From: an uncultured Chloroflexia bacterium
GTDB lineage: Bacteria; Chloroflexota; Limnocylindria; Limnocylindrales; CSP1-4
Direction: 5' to 3'
Assembly: GCA_963801745.1 (NCBI GenBank)
Contig: CAWDFY010000005.1
Span: forward strand, 918,619 to 982,618
Length of the DNA stretch: 64,000 nt
A model generated the notes under the pieces. The model was not told the origin of the DNA and made no database searches. It saw nothing but the letters and a program-made list of their open reading frames with translations. The translations under genes were made by a program, and so were the position numbers. How positions within the stretch are numbered: position 1 is the stretch's first letter; every line of letters begins with the position of its first letter. Positions 2,387 to 55,183 of this stretch are shown here, piece after piece.

Positions 2387-4837
2387 ATGGTCGCGCGTGT
2401 CGGCGCAGCCATCGCGCTGTTGACGGGCCTCGTCGCGGCCCCGGCGGCGGCCGGGCGGCCCGTCCATGCGGTCGCGCCGCCACCCGGTCTGACCATGGAG
2501 GCCCGGGTCCTGCTGAACGGCCACGCCCGGGTCGGGTCGTGGATGGCCATCGACGTGCATCTCGCGAACGAGGGCCCGCCGATCTCCGGCGAGCTGCGGA
2601 TGCCGGGCGGCGTCCAGGGCCGCACGGTGTTCGGCACCGTCGTCGACGTCCCCACCCAGTCCGACAAGACGTACCGCCTGTACGCGCAGCCGCCGGGCTT
2701 CGGCCGCGAGCTCGAGATCAGCCTGGTCGACGGCCCCTCGACCATCGCGACCGCCGCCGCGGAGTTCTCGGTGCACGACATCGGGCAGCTGACCGTCGGC
2801 ATCGTGGCCGAGGATCCGGGCGAGATCATCGGCGACCTCGACCTCCTGCCGAACGCGAGCAACGTCAAGCCGCTTACGGTGGGCCTGGCGCCGGCCGACC
2901 TGCCCACGCGGGTCGAGGCGTGGGGCGCGGTCGACCGGCTGATCTGGCAGGACACCGACTCGACGGCCCTCGACGCCGACCAGCTGGCGGCATTGCGCGG
3001 TTGGGTCGCCGGTGGCGGTCGCATGATCATCGCGGGCGGGACCGCCGGACCGGCCAGCCTGTCGGCGTTCCCTGACGACATCCTCCCCTACCGCCCTTCG
3101 ACGACCACGGACGTCGCGGCGTCGTCGCTCGAGTCGCTGCTCGGCCGGGTCCCGGACGGCGCGACCGACCTGCCTGCTCTCTCTGGCGAGCTGACGGCCG
3201 GTCGGGCCCTCGCCAGCGTCGGCGACCGTGCGGTGGCCGCGGAGCGGGCGTACGGGGCGGGCTCCGTCACGATCATCGGGTTCGACCCGACGGCCGAGTG
3301 GCTGGCGGGCACCTCCCAGGCGGAGGGCCTCTGGCGTCGCCTCATCCCGAGCCGCACGCCGGGCGCGGCGCTGGGCGGCGACGACAGCCAGATCGTCCAG
3401 GCGGCCTCGCAGCTGCCGACCCTCGCGCTGCCGCCGATCGAGGGCCTCATCGCGCTGCTCGGCGGCTACATCCTCCTGATCGGCCCGATCAACTACCTGA
3501 TCCTGCGCCACTTCGACAAGCGCGAGTGGGCGTGGGTCACGATGCCGGCGCTGATCGTCGCGTTCGCCGTGGGTGCATACGGCTTCGGATCGCTCCTCCG
3601 CGGCAGCGACGTCATCATCAACGAAGTCGCCATCGTGCGCGGCGCCCCCGGCGCCACCGAAGGCATCGCCCAGGCGTACTACGGGATCTTCTCGCCGACC
3701 CGGCGCACCTACCAGATCCGCGTGCCGGGTGGTGCGCTGCTGTCGACCCCGGTCAGCGGCGACTTCGGCGGCGCGCAGGCCGGCGGGACCGGCCTCGACG
3801 TGCTCCAGGGCGACCCGTCGCGGATCCGCGACCTGGGCGTCGGCTTCGGGTCGCTGCGGACGATCAAGGCCGAGAGCGCCGTCGACGTGCCCCTCATCCG
3901 GACCGACCTGCGGCTCGAGGACGGGCGGCTCAAGGGGACTATCACCAACGCCTCCGAGGAGACCGTCCTGGAGCCGGCCATCGTCCTCGGCGGCAGCGTC
4001 GCGCGCCTCGACGACCTCGCGCCGGGGGCGTCGGTGCCGGTCGACACCGCGATCCAGCCCGCCCAGATCAACCAGCAGCTGTCCGACAAGGTGGTCGGCT
4101 CGATGTTCTTCGGCGAGCCGGAGCGCGTCGGCGAGGACGGGGCTCGCCAGAACACCCGGCACCTCATCATCGACCAGCTGACGTTCGACCCGCAGTTCGG
4201 GTCGAGCGTCCAGCTGGCCGTCGACGGCCCGGTCCTGCTCGGCTGGTCGGAGCGCGAGCTGCTGCCGATCCAGATCGAGGGCCAGGCGGCCCGCCACACG
4301 GGCAGCATCCTGTGGTTCCTGCCGGCGGACATCGCGATCAGCGGCAAGACCTCGTTCCACCGGGACCTGATCCAGAGCACGGTCCTCGCCAGCGACGCCG
4401 CGATGTTCAACAAGGACCAGGTCAACATCAACTTCGGCCGGGGCAGCGCCGAGGTGTCCTATCGCCCGATGTCGTTCGACGGGACGATGAAGGCGACCGA
4501 GCTCGTGATCGGCTTCAACTTCGGCGACATCGTCGCCGGCGACCCGCAGCCGATCGAGCCGATCACCGACATCCCGGTGATCTGCGAGGCAGGCGAGATC
4601 GTCGACGGCTGCGTCGAGCGCGACTTCGACGGCCTGCCGGAGGTCGAGCTGTACGACCTGACCGGTGACATGTGGCGCCGCCTGCCGCACATGACCGGTG
4701 GCTGGACGTACCGGGTCGCCGACCCCGCCCGATACGTCGATCCCGCGACCGGCACGGTCCTCGCCCGCTACGTCAACGAGTCGAACGACGGTGTCAGCTT
4801 CAACTTCGACCTGACCATCAAGGGTGACGTGTCGTGA
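2387..4837 (+). CDS. large secreted/membrane protein, first gene of the operon (possible GldG-like ABC-exporter auxiliary protein)
   Basis: A strong RBS (AAGGGGG) lies 6 nt upstream of the ATG at 2387. The N-terminal signal peptide reads MVARVGAAIALLTGLVAAPAAAG. An internal pair of TM helices follows (LIALLGGYILLIGPINYLIL / WVTMPALIVAFAVGAYGFGSLL). The remainder is extracytoplasmic. The gene is translationally coupled (GTGA overlap) to the downstream ABC ATPase. Confidence 0.6.
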   Translation: MVARVGAAIALLTGLVAAPAAAGRPVHAVAPPPGLTMEARVLLNGHARVGSWMAIDVHLANEGPPISGELRMPGGVQGRTVFGTVVDVPTQSDKTYRLYAQPPGFGRELEISLVDGPSTIATAAAEFSVHDIGQLTVGIVAEDPGEIIGDLDLLPNASNVKPLTVGLAPADLPTRVEAWGAVDRLIWQDTDSTALDADQLAALRGWVAGGGRMIIAGGTAGPASLSAFPDDILPYRPSTTTDVAASSLESLLGRVPDGATDLPALSGELTAGRALASVGDRAVAAERAYGAGSVTIIGFDPTAEWLAGTSQAEGLWRRLIPSRTPGAALGGDDSQIVQAASQLPTLALPPIEGLIALLGGYILLIGPINYLILRHFDKREWAWVTMPALIVAFAVGAYGFGSLLRGSDVIINEVAIVRGAPGATEGIAQAYYGIFSPTRRTYQIRVPGGALLSTPVSGDFGGAQAGGTGLDVLQGDPSRIRDLGVGFGSLRTIKAESAVDVPLIRTDLRLEDGRLKGTITNASEETVLEPAIVLGGSVARLDDLAPGASVPVDTAIQPAQINQQLSDKVVGSMFFGEPERVGEDGARQNTRHLIIDQLTFDPQFGSSVQLAVDGPVLLGWSERELLPIQIEGQAARHTGSILWFLPADIAISGKTSFHRDLIQSTVLASDAAMFNKDQVNINFGRGSAEVSYRPMSFDGTMKATELVIGFNFGDIVAGDPQPIEPITDIPVICEAGEIVDGCVERDFDGLPEVELYDLTGDMWRRLPHMTGGWTYRVADPARYVDPATGTVLARYVNESNDGVSFNFDLTIKGDVS

Positions 4838-5796
4838 CCGAGATCGTGCGGACCGAGGGTCTCGTCAAGCGCTACGACGGCACGCTCGCCGTGGCGGGCG
4901 TCGACCTGAGCGTCCAGTCGGGCGAGATCTTCGGGCTGGTCGGCCCGAATGGGGCCGGCAAGACGACCACGCTGCGAATCCTGGCCACGCTGCTCCAGCC
5001 ATCGGCCGGCTCAGCCGAGATCGCCGGCATGTCGGTGACCCGGAACCCGGACCACGTCCGACGCGTCCTCGGGTTCATGCCGGACGCGTTCGGGGTGTAC
5101 GACGACATGAAGGTCTGGGAGTACCTGGACTTCTTCGCCCGCTGCTACGGCCTCACCCCGGCCGCACGACGACGGGTCATCGCCGACCTGCTCGAGCTGG
5201 TCGACCTCGGCGACAAGCGCGACGCCTACGTCCAGACGCTGTCGCGCGGCATGCAGCAGCGGCTGTGCCTCGCGCACGCGCTCGTCCACGACCCGCAGGT
5301 CCTGCTGCTCGACGAGCCGGCGTCGGGCCTGGATCCACGCGCCCGCGTCGAGCTGCGCGAGCTGCTCCGCGAGCTGCGGGCGATGGGCAAGACGATCCTC
5401 ATCAGCAGCCACATCCTTCCCGAGCTCGAGGAGCTGTGCACGAGCGTCGCGATCATCGACCGCGGCCAGGTGCTGGCCCAGGGCCGGGTGGCCGACATCG
5501 AGCGACGGCTGCGCTTCGGGGCCGTGCTCCGGGTCCGGCTACTGCTCGAGGGTGAGGCGCTCGACGCCGCGCGCGACCGGTTCGCCGCCGATCCCGACGT
5601 CGCCTCGGCCGTCGTGCTCGAGGATGGGACGATCGAGCTCGGGTTCCGCGGCGACGACGAGGCGACGGCACGCCTCCTCGCGTCATCGATCGCGGCCGGG
5701 CTGCCGATCCTGACCTTCGCCCGCGCTGCCAGCGACCTCGAGGAGCTGTTCCTCCAGGTGACGTCGCCCGACCGCGAACCGGTGGCCGTGGCATGA
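4834..5796 (+). CDS. ABC transporter ATP-binding protein (ABC-2 / GldA-NosF-CcmA type)
   Basis: Walker A is GPNGAGKTT. The ABC signature is LSRGMQQRL. Walker B is LLLDEPASGLD. The H-loop is SSHIL. Confidence 0.9.
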   Translation: MTEIVRTEGLVKRYDGTLAVAGVDLSVQSGEIFGLVGPNGAGKTTTLRILATLLQPSAGSAEIAGMSVTRNPDHVRRVLGFMPDAFGVYDDMKVWEYLDFFARCYGLTPAARRRVIADLLELVDLGDKRDAYVQTLSRGMQQRLCLAHALVHDPQVLLLDEPASGLDPRARVELRELLRELRAMGKTILISSHILPELEELCTSVAIIDRGQVLAQGRVADIERRLRFGAVLRVRLLLEGEALDAARDRFAADPDVASAVVLEDGTIELGFRGDDEATARLLASSIAAGLPILTFARAASDLEELFLQVTSPDREPVAVA

Positions 5797-5806
5797 GGCA
5801 CCGCCG

Positions 5807-6985
5807 ATGACCGAGCTGACCGCGACGACCACGCCGGTCCCGCCGCAGGCGCCGCGCTGGTCGTCGTTCGCGCGCACTGTCGGCGGCGTGACCGCGATCG
5901 GGGTCAAGGAGCTGCGCGGCCGGATGCGCGGCCGTCGGGCCTTCGTGATCCTGACCATCTACCTCGTGCTGCTCGGCCTGTTCGCCCTCATGGTCGAACG
6001 GGTCATGGAGGCGGATTACGCCGAGCGCCTGATCGGGACGCCCGCTTCGGCGGGTCCGGCGATAGGCCAGGGGATCTTCGCCGCCCTGCTGATGCTGATG
6101 ACGCTCCAGGTGGTCTTCCTCGCCCCATCGTCAACCGCGGGCGCGATCTCGCTCGAGCGTGAGAAGCAGACCCTCGATCTGCTGGTCACGACGCCGATCA
6201 GCTCGCTCGCGATCGTCATCGGCAAGCTGCTTTCGGCGCTGGTCTACGTCTTCCTGCTGATCGCGGCGTCGATCCCGTTGATGGCCGTCGTGTTCGTGTT
6301 CGGCGGCGTCGGCCCGGATGATGTGATCCGCGGCTACCTAGTGCTGATCGTCGCGGCCATCGGCTTCGGTGCCTTCGGGTTGTTCTGCTCGAGCCTCGTG
6401 AAGCGGACGACCGCCTCGACCGCGATCACGATCTTCGGTGTGTTGGCGATCACCATCGGGACGATCTTCGTGCTCGTGTTCTGGCAGGCGTTGTCGGACG
6501 TGGACGACAACGGCAACCAGCGCCCGGGCGTGCTCGGGATCCGAACGCCGGCGGTGCTCGCCTGGATGAACCCGTTCGTGGCCCAGGCAGACGTGCTGTG
6601 CGGCACCGAGTCGACGTTCAGCGGCGGCTGGTGCCAGTTCGTCAACGGCCTCGTCCCGAACGACAACGGCGTCGTGATCCGCGACGGCGGCGTGATCCCG
6701 GTGCCGCCACCGCCGGGCCTCGGCGGAGAGCGGGCACCCGTCGCGGTCGGCGGCGTCGCCGTGGGTGGCGGCCAGACCGAGCCCGGGATCGGGGTGAACG
6801 CCGTCCAGGCCTTCGGCCCCGAGCGAGATCGGTTGTGGACGAAGAGCGTCGTGACCTGGCTCGTCCTGTCGGTGGTCTTCATCGCCCTGTCGGTCCAGGC
6901 GGTCTCGCCGACCCGCCGCTGGCAGGTCCGGCGTGGGCCTCGCACGCCGGCGCCGCCGGTGGACAGCGCCGGGCCGGTGGCATGA
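5807..6985 (+). CDS. ABC-2 family permease with large extracytoplasmic insert
   Basis: There are six hydrophobic helices. A long Gly/Pro-rich loop sits between TM5 and TM6. The stop overlaps the next start (ATGA), indicating coupling. Confidence 0.8.
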   Translation: MTELTATTTPVPPQAPRWSSFARTVGGVTAIGVKELRGRMRGRRAFVILTIYLVLLGLFALMVERVMEADYAERLIGTPASAGPAIGQGIFAALLMLMTLQVVFLAPSSTAGAISLEREKQTLDLLVTTPISSLAIVIGKLLSALVYVFLLIAASIPLMAVVFVFGGVGPDDVIRGYLVLIVAAIGFGAFGLFCSSLVKRTTASTAITIFGVLAITIGTIFVLVFWQALSDVDDNGNQRPGVLGIRTPAVLAWMNPFVAQADVLCGTESTFSGGWCQFVNGLVPNDNGVVIRDGGVIPVPPPPGLGGERAPVAVGGVAVGGGQTEPGIGVNAVQAFGPERDRLWTKSVVTWLVLSVVFIALSVQAVSPTRRWQVRRGPRTPAPPVDSAGPVA

Positions 6986-8902
6986 GCCTGACGCTGCGCG
7001 TCCCCGCCGCGCTGCGACCGGCCCGGCCGGCGCACGGCGGCGCCATGGTCCCGCCCGATCCGCGCGAGGCCCTCGACGGCCCGCTCGACCCGACGCTCGA
7101 GACCATCCGCACCTCGCTCGCCCCGCACCGGCGGCGTCTCTGGCTGCGCCGGATCGTCCGCCGTGGATGGATGGCGCTCGCGGCGATCGCCGTCGGCGAG
7201 GTCGCGATCTGGACGATCGCCCGGTTCGTGCCGCTCGAGACGGCCCCGCTGGTCGCGGCAGTGATCCCGGTGGTGGTGCTGCTCGTCTGGCTCGCGGCGT
7301 GCATCCTGGCGCGTCCGTCGCTCGGCGAGACGGCGCTGGCGGTCGACGTCGAGGGCGGGCTCGGAGACCGCGTCTCGTCGGCGCTCGAGCTGGCCGTCGC
7401 GTTCCCAGGCTCGGCAACGCCCCCCGCGGACAGCGTCGACCTCGACGCCCCGGTCGCCGCGGTCGACGAGGCCGCCGAGACCGACCGGTTTGTCCGACGT
7501 CAGCGACGAGATGCGCTGCAGTCGCTGCGCACCGTGCCGGCGTTGTTCAAGCCACGCTTCTCGCGGGATCCTGCGATCGCCGCGGTTGTGGCCGTCGCAC
7601 TGCTCGTTCCGGTGGTCGCCCTGCCCAATCCGCAGAACGCCGTCATCGCCGAGCGACAGGAGGTCCGCGAGGCCGCGGACCGCCAGGCCGATCGACTCGA
7701 GGAGATCGCCCGCGATCTCGAGACCAGGGGTCGCGACTCCGAGGACCCGCGGACCCGGCTCGCCGAGGAGCTGCGCGAGCTCGCTCGCCAGCTGCGCGAC
7801 CGGCCCGGTGAGCTCGCCGCGAACCTGCGCCAGCTCGGTGCGGTCGAGAGCGACGTCCGCGCGCGCATCGACCCCGCGACCGAGCAGCGCGCCTCAGCGA
7901 TGACCTCGCTCGCGCGCTCGCTGTCGCGGGCGGCGACCGGCAACCCCGACGCGAACCGCGACGGCGAGCCGGAGAAGACCAGGGACGACCTGGAGGAGCT
8001 CGGCGACAAGCTCGACGACATGACCGAGGCCGAGCGCCGGGCGCTCGCACAGCGGCTGGCGGAGATGCAATCGACGGCATCGAGTGCCGATGGTGGCGCC
8101 GCGACCGCCCTGCGCGATGCCGCGCAAAGCCTCGCCCAGGGCGACGCCGCGGGTGCACGCTCCGCGCTCGACCGGCTCGGCGAGTCGATGGCCGGGGCGC
8201 AGGCGAGCATCGACACCAACCGTGATCTGGCAGAGGCGGCTTCACGGCTCCAGGACGCCCGTCGCGACCTGGCCGATGCCGGCCAGCCGGGAGATCAGCA
8301 GGGCCAGGGGCAAGGTCAAGGCCAACGCCAAGGTCAAGGCCAGGGGCAGGGCAGCCCGCAGCCCAGCGGTCAAGGCCAGGGTCAGGGTCAAGGCCAGGGT
8401 CAAGGCCAGGGCCAGGGTCAGGGTCAGGGCCAAGGCCAGGGTCAGGGCCAAGGTCAAGGTCAGGGCCAGGGCCAAGGCCAGGGCCAAGGTCAAGGCCAGG
8501 GCCAAGGTCAGGGCCAGGCAGGGCCAGGGCGCCATCGGCGGCGGCGGGTCGAACGCCCGCTCGCTCGGCCAGGGCACCGGTGGCAACGGCCGCCCTGCCG
8601 GGCCGACCAACCCGAACCGTCCTTCCGAGCTGGGCGAGGACCTCTCGTCGGTGTTCGCGCCGTTCGACCGCGTCGGTCGGCCGGGTGACCCGTCGTACGT
8701 CGCCGGTACCGGCGGCGACGGCCAGACCCAGCAGGGGTCCGGCACCGGCTCCGGCACGAACAACGGCGCGCTGACCCCGTACCAGCAGGTCTACGCCGAT
8801 TTCTTCGACTACGCGCAGACGTCGCTCGACCGCGGCTACGTGCCGCTCTCGATCAAGGACTACGTGCGCGACTACTTCAGCTCGCTCGACCCGTCGAACT
8901 AG
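6982..8902 (+). CDS. membrane-anchored coiled-coil protein with a (Gly-Gln)~50 repeat and conserved C-terminal domain; apparent +/-1 frameshift near 8517
   Basis: An ATGA overlap couples it to the permease. Two N-terminal TM helices are present. The middle is rich in E/R/A/L and looks like coiled coil. The GQ repeat in one frame runs into junk (AGPGRHRRRR). The continuation that looks like real protein, QGQGAIGGGGSNARSLGQG...LTPYQQVYADFFDYAQTSLDRGYVPLSIKDYVRDYFSSLDPSN, is in the ORF-track frame 8084..8902. The two frames are reconciled by a 1-nt indel in ggccaggcagggccagggc. Confidence 0.55.
8299..8536 (+). repeat. tandem hexanucleotide repeat (GGN-CAR)n, about 38 units, encoding poly(Gly-Gln)
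   Basis: Direct reading shows ggtcaaggccagggtcagggtcaaggccagggc... repeated continuously. The three frames encode GQ, VKAR/AKVR and SRPGPG respectively. Confidence 0.9.
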
Positions 8903-8942: not shown

Positions 8943-9956
8943 ATGGAATCGCCAGCCACGATCGATCCGACCCAGCGACTCACGCCCGAGGCGTTCGCCG
9001 AACGCGCCGGGGCGATCGAGCGCGAGGTCGGGCGCGTCATCGTCGGCCAGCGGGATCTCGTCCGTCAGACGATGACCGGACTGCTCGCGAACAGCCACGT
9101 GCTGTTGGAGGGCGTGCCCGGGCTGGGCAAGACGATGCTCGTGCGGACCATCGCCGACGTCATCGACTGCACGTTCAACCGCATCCAGTTCACGCCGGAC
9201 CTGATGCCGGCCGACATCACCGGCACGAACATCCTCGTCGAGGAGGATGGCCAGCGGGTCTTCAGGTTCCAGCCGGGCCCGGTCTTCGCGAACCTGGTCC
9301 TCGCCGACGAGATCAACCGGGCGACCCCCAAGACCCAGTCGAGCCTCCTCGAGGCGATGCAGGAGCACCAGGTCACGGTCGCCCGACAGCGCTACAAGCT
9401 CGACCCGCCGTTCTTCGTCCTCGCCACCCAGAACCCGCTCGAGATGGAGGGCACCTATCCCCTCCCCGAGGCGCAGCTCGACCGGTTCATGTTCAAGGTC
9501 ATGGTCCCCTTCCCGTCGGAGGAGGACCTGGTCGCGATCATGGACCGCACGACCGGCGCGGAGGGCGTGTCGGCGAGCAAGATCTGCACGGCGGCGGAGA
9601 TCGTCGAGATGCAGCGCCTGGCCCGGGCCGTCCCGATCGCACCGCACGTGACGGCCTACGCGGTCAGCCTCCTCGCCGCGACCCATCCTGACAGCGGCCG
9701 GGCGCCGGGTCTCGTCCGCGAGTACGTCCGCTACGGTGGATCGCCGCGCGGCGCCCAGGCGCTCGTCACGGCGGGCAAGATCTACGCGCTGCTCGACGGT
9801 CGCTTCAACGTCTCGACCGACGACATCCGGGCGGTGGCGCTCCCGTCCCTCCGCCATCGGATCATCCTCAACTTCGAGGGTGAGGCCGAGGGCATCACCA
9901 GCGAGTCGGCCATCCGCGCGATCCTCGACGCCGTCGCCGTCCCGACCGTCGAATAG
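8943..9956 (+). CDS. MoxR-family AAA+ ATPase
   Basis: Walker A reads GVPGLGKT. Walker B reads LADEINRATPKTQSSLLEAMQE. The sequence ...VLATQNPLE...PEAQLDRF is typical of MoxR/RavA. Confidence 0.9.
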   Translation: MESPATIDPTQRLTPEAFAERAGAIEREVGRVIVGQRDLVRQTMTGLLANSHVLLEGVPGLGKTMLVRTIADVIDCTFNRIQFTPDLMPADITGTNILVEEDGQRVFRFQPGPVFANLVLADEINRATPKTQSSLLEAMQEHQVTVARQRYKLDPPFFVLATQNPLEMEGTYPLPEAQLDRFMFKVMVPFPSEEDLVAIMDRTTGAEGVSASKICTAAEIVEMQRLARAVPIAPHVTAYAVSLLAATHPDSGRAPGLVREYVRYGGSPRGAQALVTAGKIYALLDGRFNVSTDDIRAVALPSLRHRIILNFEGEAEGITSESAIRAILDAVAVPTVE

Positions 9957-9965
9957 TCGGGCGAC

Positions 9966-10946
9966 ATGACCGAGCGGACGAGCCTCGACGCCGGGGCCTC
10001 GCAGCCCACGGGCACGAGCCAGCCGCCGGCGGCCGGGACGCGACAGGCGTTCCTGCCGAGCGAGGTCGACCCGACGGTCTTCGACGAGGCGTTCCTGCGC
10101 CAGCTCGAGCGGCTGCTGCTGCTGATGCGGTCGCCGGTCCGCGGCGGGCTCAAGGGCGGACGGCGCAGCGTCAAGCGCGGCCAGTCGGTCGAGTTCGCGG
10201 ACTACCGCGAATACACGATGGGCGACGATCTGCGCCAGCTCGACTGGAACGTCTACGCCCGTCTCGAGCGGTTGTTCGTGAAGCTCTTCGTCGAGGAGGA
10301 GGACGTCACGGTCACGCTGCTCGTCGATGCGTCGGCGTCGATGGCGACCGGCCGGCCGTCCAAGCTCGTCTTCGCCAAGCGGGCCGCGGCCGCCCTGGGC
10401 TACATCGGTCTCGCCAGCGAGGACCGGGTGGCGGTCAGCTCGTTGGCCGGGCGCGCGGCGCGCCGTCGCGCGTCGCTACGCGGCTCCGGCCGGGTGTTCC
10501 GGCTGCTGGCCGACCTGTCGGCGATCGAACCGGCGGACGGGCCGACCGACCTCGTCGCCGCCGCCAGGCACGCGGCCGCCCAGCTCCATGGGCGAGGCGT
10601 CATCGTGCTGCTGAGCGACCTGCTCGACCCGAACGCCGATCGGATCATCCGCGAGCTGGCGGCGACGGGTTCCGAGCTGATCGTCCTGCACGTCCTCTCG
10701 CCGGACGAGCTCGAACCGCCGCTCGAGGGCGATCTGCGTCTGGTCGACACCGAGACCGGTGACCGGGTCGACATCACGGCCGATCTAGCGACGATCGACG
10801 CGTACAAGGAGCGCCTCGTCGCATGGAAGGCCACGTTCGCCGACCTCGCGGCGCGCCGCGGGGCGAGCTACGTCGACCTCGCATCGGATGTGAACCTCGC
10901 CGAGCTGATGTTCGCCGAGCTGCGTCGCCGTCGAGTGCTGGGCTAG
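9966..10946 (+). CDS. DUF58 domain protein (MoxR partner)
   Basis: The core DYREYTMGDDLRQLDWNVYARLERLFVKLFVEEED is followed by VTLLVDASASM. It starts 9 nt after the MoxR stop. Confidence 0.85.
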   Translation: MTERTSLDAGASQPTGTSQPPAAGTRQAFLPSEVDPTVFDEAFLRQLERLLLLMRSPVRGGLKGGRRSVKRGQSVEFADYREYTMGDDLRQLDWNVYARLERLFVKLFVEEEDVTVTLLVDASASMATGRPSKLVFAKRAAAALGYIGLASEDRVAVSSLAGRAARRRASLRGSGRVFRLLADLSAIEPADGPTDLVAAARHAAAQLHGRGVIVLLSDLLDPNADRIIRELAATGSELIVLHVLSPDELEPPLEGDLRLVDTETGDRVDITADLATIDAYKERLVAWKATFADLAARRGASYVDLASDVNLAELMFAELRRRRVLG

Positions 10947-10955
10947 GGACGGCCG

Positions 10956-13022
10956 ATGCCCTTCACGACACCGCTGGCGCTGCTCGGCCTGCTGTTCATC
11001 CCGGCGGTCATCGCGATGTACCTGCTCAAGCTGCGTCGCGACGAGACGGTCGTGCCTTCGACGCTGCTGTGGACACGTCTGGTCGCCGACGTCGAGGCCA
11101 ACGCGCCGTGGCAGAAGCTGCGACGCAGCCTGCTGCTGCTCCTCCAGCTGCTGCTCGTCGCGGCGCTCGCCCTGCTCGCGGCGCGGCCGTTCCTCGATCG
11201 TCCCGCCGGGCTGGCCCGCGACATCGTCCTGGTCATGGACACATCGGCGAGCATGGCCGCGACCGACGTCGTGCCGAACCGGCTGACGGCCGCCAAGCAG
11301 GTCGCCATCGACGCGCTCAAGGAGCTGCCGACCGGCGGCAAGGTCAGCGTCATCGCGGCAGACCGGAGCGCCCGGATCGTCGTCAATGAGTCGACCGACC
11401 TGGCACGCGTGCGCCAGGCCATCGAGGGCATCGCGGCCACCCGGGCGCGGGGCGACCTCGGCGACGCGCTGGAGCTCGCGTCGAAGCTCGCGGCGCGCTC
11501 CGGGCAGGCCCAGGTCCTCGTCGCGACCGACGCCGCGCTGGCCGCGAGGCCGGCCGGCCGCGTGTCCGCGCCGGTCAAGGTGCTGTCGGTCGGTCGGGAG
11601 CGCAAGAACCAGGCGATCGTCGCGCTCGCGGTCCGGACCGCGCCATCGGCCGTGACCCGATCGGTGTTCGTCAGCGTCGCCAACCTCGACCTCGAGGCCG
11701 CCGGCCGGCGGCTAGAGGTGTGGGGCGACGACCGCCTGATCGAGGTGCGCGACGTCCAGCTCGACCCACAGGCTCGCTCCGACGTCATCATCGACGACCT
11801 GCCGCGCGACGTGCGGACCGTCGAGGTGCGCCTGACGGGCTCGGATCCCGCCGTGACGGCGGCTCCCGACCAGCTGGCGGTCGACGACCGGGCGTGGGCC
11901 GTCGTGCCGCCCGATCGGACCCGGCTCGTGCTCTTGGTCGGCGAGGGCGACCCGTATCTCGAGACGGCGCTGTCGTACCTGCCCGACGTCGAGCTGTTCG
12001 GCGTGACCCCGGCCCAGTACGGCCCGGCCACCGAGCGCACGGATGGCAGGCCATGGGACCTCGTGATCTTCGAGGGCTACCTGCCGGCATCGTTGCCGCG
12101 CAGCGCGATCCTCGCGATCGCGCCGCCCCGGACCAGCGCCCTCGGCGACGTTACCGGCAAGCTGACGAACCCGGGCATCGGCTCGCTCGACACCGATGAG
12201 CCCGTGCTGCGCTTCGTCGACCTCTCGACCACGCACATCTCCGAGGCGGTCAAGCTCACGACCCCGACCTGGGCGCGGACGATCGTGCCCGGGCCGCGCG
12301 GCGCGCCGCTGCTGTATGCCGGCACGCGCGACGGGCTGAACAGCGCGGTCATGGCCTTCGAGCCGCGGCGTTCCGACCTGCCGCTCCAGGTCGCCTTCCC
12401 GATCCTGCTGGCCAACCTGACCGGGGAGCTGCTGGGTTCGTCGACCGCACCAACGGAGGCCGTCGAGCCGGGCACACCGGTCGAGCTGCACATCCCGTCG
12501 GGCGCCGTGGGTCTGACCGTGACCGGTCCGGACGGGGCGACGACCGAGCTGGTCCCCAGCTCGACCGACCTCGGGACGACGGCCGTCACGTTCGCAGCCG
12601 CCGACCTGCCCGGTGTCTACACCGTCACGCCGAAGGTCGATCCAAACGCGTCACCGCCACCGACCTCGAGCGGGGCGGCGTCGCCCCGACCGTCCGTCGC
12701 TCCGTCGGGCTCGCCGGTCGTCGACGACCCGCTCGCCCCGGTGCGCTTCGTGGTCGACCTGTTCGACGTCGACGAATCGACCATCGCGCCCGGGTCGGTC
12801 GCGGCGATCGAGGCACTCGGGACGGCACCCGATGGCGGAGCCGGGGCAGGCGCAACCCCGGTCGAGCGCCCGACCACCCGGGACGAGCTATGGGTGCCGA
12901 TCGTCCTGGCGATCCTCGCCTTCCTGTGCGTCGAATGGGCGCTCTACCACCGTGATGGGCTCGTCCGGGTCCGCCGCTCGCTGTCGGCCCGCTTCGGGCG
13001 CGACGCGGGGAGCGCGACCTGA
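10956..13022 (+). CDS. BatA-like membrane protein: aerotolerance-regulator N-terminal domain plus VWA domain
   Basis: The N-terminus reads MPFTTPLALLGLLFIPAVIAMYLLKLRR...LLLLLQLLLVAALALLAARPF. The MIDAS motif is DIVLVMDTSASM. There is a C-terminal TM helix. It starts 9 nt after DUF58. Confidence 0.8.
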   Translation: MPFTTPLALLGLLFIPAVIAMYLLKLRRDETVVPSTLLWTRLVADVEANAPWQKLRRSLLLLLQLLLVAALALLAARPFLDRPAGLARDIVLVMDTSASMAATDVVPNRLTAAKQVAIDALKELPTGGKVSVIAADRSARIVVNESTDLARVRQAIEGIAATRARGDLGDALELASKLAARSGQAQVLVATDAALAARPAGRVSAPVKVLSVGRERKNQAIVALAVRTAPSAVTRSVFVSVANLDLEAAGRRLEVWGDDRLIEVRDVQLDPQARSDVIIDDLPRDVRTVEVRLTGSDPAVTAAPDQLAVDDRAWAVVPPDRTRLVLLVGEGDPYLETALSYLPDVELFGVTPAQYGPATERTDGRPWDLVIFEGYLPASLPRSAILAIAPPRTSALGDVTGKLTNPGIGSLDTDEPVLRFVDLSTTHISEAVKLTTPTWARTIVPGPRGAPLLYAGTRDGLNSAVMAFEPRRSDLPLQVAFPILLANLTGELLGSSTAPTEAVEPGTPVELHIPSGAVGLTVTGPDGATTELVPSSTDLGTTAVTFAAADLPGVYTVTPKVDPNASPPPTSSGAASPRPSVAPSGSPVVDDPLAPVRFVVDLFDVDESTIAPGSVAAIEALGTAPDGGAGAGATPVERPTTRDELWVPIVLAILAFLCVEWALYHRDGLVRVRRSLSARFGRDAGSAT

Positions 13023-49551: not shown

Positions 49552-49630
49552 CGACAAGTGAGCGACGGTTGACCGGGCGATGACCGACGACGCGTACGAT
49601 GCTCGTGCATCCGCCCGGGAGGTTCGTTCC

Positions 49631-50343
49631 ATGGCCGTCGCCACGCTGCCCTTCACCGGCTTCCGCCCCGAGGCGATCGACTTCCTCGCGGACCTCGCCC
49701 AGAACAACGACCGCTCCTGGTTCCAGCCGCGCAAGGCCGACTACGAGCGGCTCCTCAAGGAGCCGATGGAGGCATTCGTCGAGGCCCTGGCCGAGCGGCA
49801 TTCGAACGCCGAGACCTGCCGCTCCAGGCCGATCCGAAGCGGTCGATCTTCCGGATCTACCGCGACACACGCTTCGCCAAGGACAAGTCGCCCTACAAGA
49901 CCCACCTGGGCGCGAGCTTCCCGTGGGTGGAGGGCATGGACCCGGACACGGCGATGTCCCACGGCGAGCACCGCAACGGCGCGTACTTCCACCTCCAGCC
50001 GGGCAACAACTACGCCGGTGGCGGGATGTGGCGCGCCTCGAAGGCCGTCCTCGACGCCTTCCGCCAGGCCATCCTCGACGACGAGGCGCGGGTCCGCGCG
50101 GCGCTCGAGGACCCCCGGTTCATCGCCGAGTTCGGGCCGGTCGAGAGCCACGACACCCTCAAGCGCGTGCCGCCGGGCTACCCGCCCGACCACCCGATGG
50201 CCGAGCTGTTCCGCTACAAGGACGTGGTCTTCGGGCGACGGCTGTCCGACGACGAGGTCTACTCCGCCGAGCTGCCCGACATCCTGGCGACGGCGTACGC
50301 CTCGGCGACGCCGGTGTTCCGGTTCCTGTCCTCGCTCGACTGA
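49631..50343 (+). CDS. DUF2461 / TIGR02453 family protein, 1 frameshift near 49815
   Basis: The N-terminus reads MAVATLPFTGFRPEAIDFLADLAQNNDRSWFQPRKADYERLLKEPMEAFVEALAE. The next frame reads DPKRSIFRIYRDTRFAKDKSPYKTHLGASF...RVPPGYPPDHPMAELFRYKDVVF. Confidence 0.7.
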
Positions 50344-50352
50344 CGACGGAGG

Positions 50353-51295
50353 ATGCGGTTCGGCGCTGCGTTCTGGATCCAGCGCACCAGCTGGCCCGAC
50401 CTGCGCGATGCGTGCCTCGCCGTCGAGGCGGCGGGCTGGGACTCGATCTGGCTCGACGACCACCTGCTGTCGGACGAGGGGGACTGGAGCGACCCGAAGC
50501 TGGAGGGCTGGGCGTCGCTCGCCGCGGTCGCATCGCTGACGACGCGCGTCCGCCTCGGGCTGCTGGTGTCGTCGACGACGTTCCGGAACCCGGGGCTCAT
50601 CGCCAAGCTGGCGACGACGCTGGACCACGTGTCGGGCGGGCGGAGCGTGCTCGGGCTCGGCGGCGGCTGGTTCGGCCGCGAGCACGACGCCTTCGGCATC
50701 GATTTCGGGACAGGCTTCGGGGAACGGCTCGACCGGCTCGACGAGGCGACGATGATCGTCCGGCGGCTGCTCGACGGCGAGCGGTTCTCACACGCCGGCC
50801 GCTTCTTCCGGGTCGACGACGCGGTGTGCGAACCGCGCCCCGTGCAGGAGCGGCTGCCGATCCTGATCGGCGGCTCCGGGCCGACCAAGACGCTGCGCAC
50901 GACGGCCCGGTACGCCGACCTGTGGAACGGCTATGGCGACCCGGACCGCATCGCCGACGTGTCCGAGGTCCTGCGCACCCGCTGCGGGGAGGATCGGCCG
51001 TCCGTTCGAGTCGATCGAGCGGACCGTGACGGTCCACGCCGTCGTGCGCGACACCGCGGCGCACGCGGTCGAGGCGTGGACGCCGATCGCCAAGCGGCAC
51101 GGCCTGGTCGACCGCGTGGCCGCCGACGGCACCGATCGGGGCCTCACCGTCGGTGGTTCGCCGCAAGAAGTAGCCGCGTACCTCGACGGCTATCGCCGCA
51201 TCGGGGTCGGCGAGGTGGTGTTCGTGTTCCGCCACCCCTTCGACCTGGAGACCGTCGGGCGGCTCGACGAGGTCCGGGCCGCGCTCGGCGGCTAG
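50353..51295 (+). CDS. LLM-class F420-dependent oxidoreductase (second copy), 1 frameshift near 50990
   Basis: The N-terminus reads MRFGAAFWIQRTSWPDLRDACLAVEAAGWDSIWLDDHLL. The C-terminus GRPFESIERTVTVHAVV...GVGEVVFVFRHPFDLETVGRL is in the +1 frame after the cggggag run. Confidence 0.7.
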
Positions 51296-52270
51296 GTCCC
51301 TGACCGCTCCTCGGCGGTCGTGCGTCGCCACAGCTCGGCCGCGAGCAGCTCGGCCACCACCGAGGCGACGATCGCCCGCTCGAAGCGATCGGCCGCCGGA
51401 CGCGGCGGGACCGGGATCGTCAGCGCGGCGCCATCGACCGCGTCTCCGACGACGATCGTCTCCCCTCCCCGGCGGGCGATCGTGCGGACGACCTCCGCGT
51501 CGGCCGGCGCGCCGCCGAAGAGCAGCGCCCGGTGGCCGGGCAGCGCGAGGTAGACCGCGGTGTGCAGCCAGTCGCCGGTGTCGTGTCGCGGTGCGCCGGC
51601 AGACGCGGCGCCTCGCGCAGCATGAGCGCCGCCTGCTGGACCAGCGCCGAGTCGGCCGCGTCGCCGACGACGTCGATCGCCGTGGCGCCGTCGAGGAGAT
51701 CGGCCGCGTCGGACAGCCACGCATCGCGGCCGTCGATCGCGGCCCCCAGTGCCTCGACCGCCGGGCGGAACGAGCCGGCGCTCGGACCGTCCGCCGACCC
51801 AGCGACCGGCGAGCATCGCCGAGCACCGCGACCGTGGCCCGGAACGTGCGCGTGGCGATGCCGGACGCCTCTTGCCGCGCGAACAGCGGCAACACGTGAT
51901 CGGCGGCCTCGGCCAGCGGCGACTCGATCCTGTCGGTCACCGCCACGACCCGGCCGTGGCCGCGATGGCGTCGGGCCGCCTCGACGACCTCCGGCGTGTG
52001 GTCCCGGACGCCGACACCGCGACCACGACGAGGTCCCCGGACGGTGCGGTCGGCGCGCCGCTCGACGCGTACTCGGACCAGGCCGCGACACCGCGGCTCC
52101 GGAGCTCCGCGGCGGCGGTCAGCGCCGCGTACCGCGAGCTGCCGAGCCCGACGAACGCGACCCGGCCGGGCGCCGCGCCGATGCCCGCGAGGGGTCCGCG
52201 CGGGTCCCCGTACGCGTCGAGCAGCTCGGCCAGGGCGGACGGCCCGGCGAGGATGTCGTCGAGCAGCGCG
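51292..52270 (-). pseudogene. SIS-domain sugar-phosphate isomerase/deaminase-like protein, at least 2 frameshifts
   Basis: The N-terminal SIS segment is RVAFVGLGSSRYAALTAAAELRSRGVAAWSEYAS...DLVVVAVSASGTT. The C-terminal segment DWLHTAVYLALPGHRALLF...AIVASVVAELLAAELWRR lies in another frame. Confidence 0.5.
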
Positions 52271-53729: not shown

Positions 53730-55183
53730 TCAGCCGCCCGTGTTGATCATCACGTGCTTGACGAACGTGTAGTCCTCGAGCGCGTACTTCGAGCCGTCCT
53801 TGCCGTAGCCGGACTGCTTCACGCCGCCGTGCGGTGTCTCCGACGCCAGCGTGAAGTGCTCGTTGATCCAGACGTGGCCGAACTCGAGCGCCTTGGCGAC
53901 GCGCATCGCCTTGCCGATGTCGCTCGTGAAGATCGACGACGCGAGGCCGTAGGGCGTGTCGTTCGCCCACTGCGATCGCCGTGTCCTCGTCGCTGAAGCG
54001 CTGGACCGTGACGACCGGCCCGAAGATCTCGTCCTGGATGATCTCGGACTTCTGGTCGGGGCCGGCGATGATCGTCGGCTCGTAGTAGGCGCCAGGCCGG
54101 TCGGGCCGCTTGCCGCCGACGACGACCTCGGCGCCGCCGCGCGCGCGGTCGACCATGCCCTCGACCTTGTCGGCCTGGGCCTTGGCGATGAGCGAGCCCA
54201 TCTCGATGTCGTCGCCCTCGGCCGGGTCGCCCCACTTGATCGTGCGGACCTGGTCGGCGAGCGCCGAGACGAAGTTGTCGTAGACCTTCGGCCCGGCGAT
54301 GACGCGGGTCGCGGCCGTGCAGTCCTGGCCGGAGTTCCAGTAGCCGGCCGAGCGCAGGGTCTCGGCGGCGAGGTCGATGTCGGCGTCGTCGAAGACGATG
54401 ATCGGCGCCTTGCCGCCGAGCTCGAGGTGCAGCCGCTTGACGGTGTCGGCGGCGATCTTGGCGATGCGCTTGCCGGTCGCCGTGTCGCCGGTGATCGAGA
54501 CCATCCGGACCTTCGGATGGCCGACCAGCGCGTCGCCGATGTCGGCGCCCGAGCCGGACAGGACGTTGACCACGCCCGGCGGCAGGATGTCGGCGAGGAT
54601 CTGGGCGAACGCCAGTGCGGTCAGCGGGGTGCGGGCCGAGGGCTTCAGCACGACGGTGTTGCCGGTCGCGAGCGCCGGGCCCGAGCTTCCACGTCGCCAT
54701 GTAGAGCGGGTAGTTCCACGGCGCGATCGACGCGACGACGCCGATCGGGTCGCGCCGGATGATCGACGTGTGGCCGGCCAGGAACTCGTTGGCGGCGAGG
54801 CCGTCCATCACCCGCGCGGCGCCGGCGAAGAAGCGGAACAGGTCGGCGCAGGTGGCCATCTCGTCGATCGCCGCACCGACCGGCTTGCCGGCGTTGGCGC
54901 TCTCGAGCCGGCCGAGCTCGTCGGCCTTGGCATCGAGCGCGTCGGCGATCTTGAGCATCAGCAGCGAGCGGTCCTGCGGGGTCGTCTGCTTCCACGTCTC
55001 GAAGGCCGTGTCGGCGGCCTCGACGGCCCGATCGACGTCCTCCTGCGAGCTCGCCGGCACGTTGGCGATGACCTCGTCGTTGGCCGGGTTGACGACCTCG
55101 GCGGTCTTGCCGTCGGCGGCATCGACGAAGTCGCCGCCGATGAGCTGCTGGTAGGTCTTGGCTCGTTCGAGGGTCTCGGTCAC
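53730..55183 (-). CDS. aldehyde dehydrogenase (NAD(P)+), 2 frameshifts (about 54645 and about 53935)
   Basis: GTG start. The N-terminus up to [17 protein letters not shown] is in frame 1. The middle [14 protein letters not shown]...ELGGKAP...GQDCTAATR... is in frame 2. The C-terminus [15 protein letters not shown]...[24 protein letters not shown]...INTGG* returns to another frame. Confidence 0.8.

Follow-up and report, generated by a model that had tools for sequence, protein, structure and literature searches.

A frame break in the poly(Gly-Gln) tract of a Limnocylindria membrane protein gene, very probably a long-read consensus error

The locus described here raises the question of whether a gene of an uncultured Limnocylindrales bacterium really loses its reading frame at the 3' end of a long coding repeat, or whether the loss was introduced with the consensus sequence. 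The stretch of DNA analysed, henceforth called the window, comprises 64,000 nucleotides of contig CAWDFY010000005.1 (assembly GCA_963801745.1). The first-pass annotation, made from the letters of the window, had left two explanations side by side, an assembly error in a difficult repeat and a genuine frameshift or phase-variable switch controlling the expression of a C-terminal domain. These were weighed using the repeat itself, the protein family, the closest relative, and related loci grouped by sequencing technology.

The repeat tract and the gene around it

Tandem Repeats Finder reported a period-6 array at positions 8299–8530 (39 copies, consensus CAGGGC), well beyond chance expectation, with higher-order periods of 18 and 30 nt in the GGN-CAR tract. 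On the forward strand, this (GGN-CAR)n hexanucleotide tract encodes a Gly-Gln linker (GQGQ...) in frame 1 (pos%3==1), which is the frame of the upstream part of the gene, and yields VKAR-type and SRPG-type repeats in frames 2 and 3, respectively, as had been annotated. The number of GQ dipeptides had been overestimated at about 50, the count being 33 in the sequence as given and 35 once repaired. Two in-frame interruptions are present, CGC (Arg, 8329–8331) and GSPQPS (8359–8376). The single CGC codon replaces a Gly position (giving GQRQGQ), leaves the frame unaffected, and may be either a true substitution or a base error. G and C runs inside the tract are only 2–4 nt long.

Read as codons, the tract is regular through GGC CAG at 8512–8517, is followed by the irregular 4-nt unit GCAG at 8518–8521 (forward strand), where the codon layout calls for GGCCAG and where frame 1 is lost, and then continues in hexamers one frame over. 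GCAG is the sole non-hexamer unit of the tract and lies inside ggccaggcagggccagggc, the string singled out in the first-pass annotation. Past this break, the GQ frame runs into an Arg/Pro-rich tail and stops at 8688. The peak of GC content at third codon positions (GC3) moves from phase 0 at 7000–8200 to phase 1 at 8590–8900, and the coding frame therefore truly changes across the tract. The description of a poly(Gly-Gln) hexamer tract that loses its frame at the 3' end was thus borne out by the tandem array, the GC3 phase switch, and the GCAG unit. A 1-nt change had been regarded as the only way to reach the C-terminal domain; removing 1 nt does restore the frame, but it is not the only way, as restoring 2 nt (GCAG to GGCCAG) also works. 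Judged by the layout of the repeat, the 2-nt restoration fits more consistently and would be the more natural repair. No slippery heptamer was found at 8512–8524, and Rfam and tRNA scans gave no match in or near the tract. The sole Rfam match in the window was a full-length TPP riboswitch (RF00059, 60536–60642, reverse strand, 62 bits), and no tRNA genes were found in the window.

After repair, positions 6982–8902 very probably constitute one gene, a single open reading frame of ~640 amino acids encoding a membrane-anchored protein; this high confidence applies jointly to the single open reading frame and to the consensus error proposed below. The 5' part of the gene (6982–8517, forward strand, frame 1, with ATG 6982 as its most plausible start) encodes three hydrophobic segments (predicted transmembrane segments at amino acids 62–83, 88–110, and 197–215), a charged helical region, and the poly(GQ) linker. 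The conserved C-terminal domain of ~120 amino acids, delimited by homologue alignment and pN/pS, lies in frame 2 of the same strand (8531–8902) and reads AIGGGGSNARSLG...KDYVRDYFSSLDPSN followed by a stop codon.

The start codon and the TGA stop of the preceding ABC-2 permease gene overlap in ATGA (6982–6985), which suggests that the gene may be translationally coupled to the upstream transporter genes. These comprise an ABC transporter ATPase (4834–5796) and the ABC-2 permease (5807–6985); downstream follow a MoxR AAA+ ATPase (8943–9956), a DUF58 gene (9966–10946), and a BatA-N/VWA protein (10956–13022), all on the forward strand and in the order seen in the closest relative (L001, see below). 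The MoxR-DUF58-VWA adjacency is present at both loci surveyed, i.e., in the window and in L001, and by synteny the gene may be functionally tied to this cluster. The arrangement resembles Bat-type MoxR-DUF58-VWA clusters (Bacteroides aerotolerance operon type; Pfam AAA_3, DUF58, BatA, VWA_2) in the MoxR, DUF58, and BatA-N/VWA genes that follow directly downstream, and differs from them in that the gene here matches no Pfam, NCBIfam, or PDB entry.

Protein family and linker

The de-repeated fusion of both parts was used as a query and retrieved 131 homologues at E ≤ 1e-3 (best 8e-252) from metagenome-assembled genomes (MAGs) of Chloroflexota, mostly Candidatus Limnocylindrales. A full scan of 1.84 billion representatives yielded 1121 clusters at E ≤ 1e-3, and 319 genomic loci of the family were confirmed. 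N-domain identity was 94% to the public homologue P0001 and 45–76% to many Limnocylindria homologues. Homology to both domains was found in the same order: among the matches listed, 39 of 120 homologues have one frame running from the N-domain through a G/Q-rich linker into the C-domain, and such a fusion holds for all 39 homologues that retain both domains. The C-terminal domain is indeed conserved, as had been stated, and its alignment contains 31 invariant columns at a mean column identity of 73%. A lack of homologues for this region, named beforehand as grounds for taking the stop in the GQ frame as possibly genuine, is thereby contradicted. Family members including P0135, P0154, and P0196 have three transmembrane segments, a coiled-coil region, a G/Q-rich linker, and a C-terminal PY..V...F...YVRDYF..L.P motif, and distant members (28–37% identity) retain the architecture with a linker of mixed G/Q/S/N/P composition. 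No significant family emerged when the repaired protein and intact or distant homologues were scanned with Pfam and NCBIfam, and PDB sequences searched with a C-domain profile gave no match. The AlphaFold2 model of the C-domain had a mean pLDDT of 53, with only the C-terminal helical hairpin (residues 84–119) being moderately confident. The family is uncharacterised and widespread in Chloroflexota, and is a modest lead in itself.

The tract is a real, conserved flexible linker, and the proposal of a linker is upheld by homologues carrying GQ-rich linkers (75–402 nt) between both domains. It resembles other low-complexity Gly/Gln/Ser/Pro-rich interdomain linkers in its placement after a helical region and ahead of a C-terminal domain and in the variation of length and composition among homologues (pure GQ, GQQ-GT/GS, GQP/GQS). 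Unlike in those, the linkers of the Limnocylindria clade are homogenised to near-pure (GQ)n of 25–130 residues.

Frame defects in relatives and in the window

The closest relative (MFD02360.bin.2.141, contig_446; loci L001/L002) shares 94.6% nucleotide identity with the window over 18.6 kb. Outside the tract, no frame-breaking indel within genes was seen between the window and L001 in this shared region; the assembly is therefore locally good and the defect specific to the repeat. The tract of L001/L002 is broken as well, by GGAG near its 5' end, and that of the window by GCAG near its 3' end; since these positions differ, the breaks were not inherited and are independent. Between the window and L001, tract length shows a net difference of 18 nt, and among close relatives it varies in steps of 6 or 18 nt. 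In the C-domain, which is out of frame in both the window and L001, 21 differences were counted, 15 of them at third codon positions (pN/pS 0.18), and pN/pS ranged from 0.13 to 0.20 in all nine comparisons, with the partner in or out of frame alike. The region past the break is thus still evolving as coding sequence in its own frame, and the C-domain is under equal purifying selection whatever the frame state of the partner. Because this constraint equals that of intact relatives, any real frameshift would have to be very recent.

A set of 80 related Limnocylindria species-representative loci was fetched via the C-domain, and the DNA from the end of the N-domain to the start of the C-domain was measured. 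Loci spanning the tract comprised 40 Nanopore-only loci (titles with MFD isolate names) and 28 short-read loci, the latter class being assigned by contig naming (k141_, NODE_, scaffold_; typical of MEGAHIT, SPAdes, etc.). Frame defects tracked technology rather than phylogeny: linker length was not a multiple of 3 in 20 of the 40 Microflora Danica Nanopore-only loci (13 at +1, 7 at −1), with compensated internal out-of-frame stretches in 5 further ones, and in 1 of the 28 short-read loci (L030), with no other defects in that class (Fisher's exact test, p = 3.2e-5 for net shifts and 4.5e-7 for any defect). Repeat length was ruled out as a confounder of this effect, as short-read linkers reached 402 nt and all 13 of those with at least 240 nt were in frame. 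The Microflora Danica MAGs were built from Nanopore data only, with Flye as the assembler and a single round of Medaka for polishing (PMC12313526). The same group reported that indels in Nanopore consensus sequences lead to frameshifted gene calls, and that short-read polishing is required for bins whose coverage is below about 40-fold (Sereika et al. 2022, PMC9262707).

The lone short-read locus out of frame, L030 (JACQEF010000350.1, a groundwater MAG), contains a 5-nt unit, GTCAG; either this is a short-read error or genuine frameshifts happen occasionally. Many short-read MAG contigs (P0009, P0011, P0022, P0041, P0045, and others) stop within the GQ tract, giving 'partial' proteins of ~390–480 amino acids. 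The GQ tract both breaks short-read assemblies and corrupts long-read consensus.

Most defects in the Nanopore loci consisted of one additional G inserted between hexamers, or of units of 5 or 4 nt (GGCAG, GTCAG, GCAG); their positions differed among loci, and both directions occurred. They are length miscalls of 2–4-nt G or C runs. A 4-nt GCAG unit like that of the window also occurs in the Nanopore locus L037, and three defects were counted in the tract of L003. In public homologues, the shift lies at the start of the tract (P0001) or mid-tract (P0007, P0012), and P0002 runs through all three frames and then back. The L004 gene (MFD09267.bin.2.90) seems intact by length; six single-G insertions at linker positions 141–272 sum to 0 mod 3, and the predicted protein alternates between GQ, PRPG, and KVRG stretches. 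The N-domains of the Nanopore loci contained 6 frameshifts in ~52 kb and their tracts ~40 defects in ~11 kb, which by this rough tally makes the tract an error hot spot roughly 30-fold above the adjacent N-domain. Ambiguous read alignment in the periodic repeat, together with short homopolymers, may be the cause of the hot spot.

Conserved genes elsewhere in the window were also split. As a GC3-based scan of the whole window for frame changes was too noisy alone, only sites with split Pfam domains were kept; candidate frame changes at ~24335 and ~32450 from the scan were unsupported by split Pfam domains. At least four further frameshifts were found in Pfam-recognisable genes. A DUF2461 gene (49580–50343, forward strand) is split over two frames (profile positions 1–47 and 53–208; break at ~49813–49828). 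In the adjacent luciferase-like monooxygenase gene (50344–51303, forward strand), the Pfam domain breaks off near 50980, at position 208 of the 314 in its profile, and the remainder was seen as a weak match in another frame (50933–51295). An aldehyde dehydrogenase gene (53733–55183, reverse strand) is broken twice, near 54660 and 53965, with profile positions 2–149, positions 159–388, and a recognisable C-terminus each in a different one of three frames. These three additional split genes all lie within ~6 kb, which suggests poor local consensus quality in that stretch.

Cause of the frame loss and its meaning

The frame loss at 8518–8521 is, with high probability, a Nanopore-type long-read consensus error, and of the explanations originally offered it is the assembly or consensus error that stands. 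This is concluded because the defects are technology-specific, the C-domain remains under selection, other genes in the window are split, and the defects are length miscalls of short runs. We infer that the window itself comes from a Nanopore-type assembly and that a regular GGCCAG unit in truth stands at 8518. In this periodic GGCCAG setting, short runs of G and C would have been miscalled, leaving GCAG; the error would be the loss of one letter each from GG and CC, or else one extra G. The counterpoint is L030, which is out of frame in a short-read assembly. Known Nanopore consensus indels that split genes (PMC9262707, PMC12313526) are alike in consisting of 1–2 nt indels at short G/C runs, in splitting several genes in one contig, and in occurring in Nanopore-only assemblies and being absent from short-read assemblies of related organisms. 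The hot spot here differs from the typical case in being a periodic hexamer repeat of G2–4 and C2 runs with no long homopolymer.

If this strain had instead truly lost 2 nt, or gained 1 nt, in its recent past, translation would end at 8688, the C-domain would be lost, and the gene would be a nascent pseudogene or a truncated allele. The break is present in the sequence as given, and the 5-nt unit in the short-read tract of L030 extends frameshifts, real or apparent, beyond Nanopore data; this reading is nevertheless unlikely, given purifying selection on the C-domain as in intact relatives, like defects in half of the Nanopore assemblies against a single short-read one, and the other split genes in the window. 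Less likely again is a real concentration of indels at the tract within Limnocylindria populations, with frame-shifted subpopulations lacking the C-terminal domain that long reads capture and that short-read assemblers collapse to the in-frame majority.

A phase-variable or hypermutable contingency locus, in which expression of the C-terminal domain is turned on and off within populations by indels in the repeat and true variation is picked up by the Nanopore consensus, would agree with frame states that differ among related genomes in both directions and at varied positions, and with tract lengths differing by 6 or 18 nt among close relatives, which indicates that the repeat does slip. Contingency loci based on simple sequence repeats are altered by slipped-strand mispairing, e.g., at tetranucleotide or homopolymer tracts in Haemophilus and Neisseria. 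The tract shares with them a long tandem repeat in a coding region with copy number varying between relatives, but its unit is a multiple of three, its G/C runs are merely 2–4 nt, the frame is kept in accurate assemblies (27 of 28 short-read loci), and it lies in the 3' third of the gene, far from the start. Slippage cannot provide an on/off switch, because units of 6, 18, or 30 nt alter the length of the linker and never the frame; the expected proneness to slipped-strand mispairing is therefore supported by the net 18-nt difference from L001 and fails as a source of frame change. Alternating shifts within one tract (L003, L004, L071) would also make no sense as a switch. Phase variation is accordingly highly improbable, and the earlier suggestion of a genuine frameshift or phase-variable switch is disfavoured by the 6-nt unit, the in-frame short-read loci, and breaks that differ between close relatives. 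The least probable reading, to the point of being ruled out, is that the sequence as written yields the whole protein through programmed +1 ribosomal frameshifting, or through slippage of transcription, where the tract ends. In keeping with such a mechanism, the C-domain here shows conservation and constraint despite being out of frame; against this, no shift site, position, or direction is conserved, the sign being +1 in 13 and −1 in 7 of the shifted Nanopore loci, no slippery heptamer accompanies the break, and most relatives, including the 13 short-read loci with long tracts, are unbroken and encode the fusion in one frame.

The favoured consensus error matters chiefly for annotation, as about half of the Nanopore-only MAGs lose the frame at the GQ tract, or 63% when compensated internal shifts are included. 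Truncated or chimeric-frame entries (e.g., P0001, P0002, P0007, P0012) abound in the public protein sets of this family, because of Nanopore frame breaks and of short-read contigs ending in the tract. Claims of pseudogenes or phase variation at such GQ-type coding repeats hence need accurate reads. For the organism itself the biological import would be small, the gene very probably being an ordinary single open reading frame with no switch.
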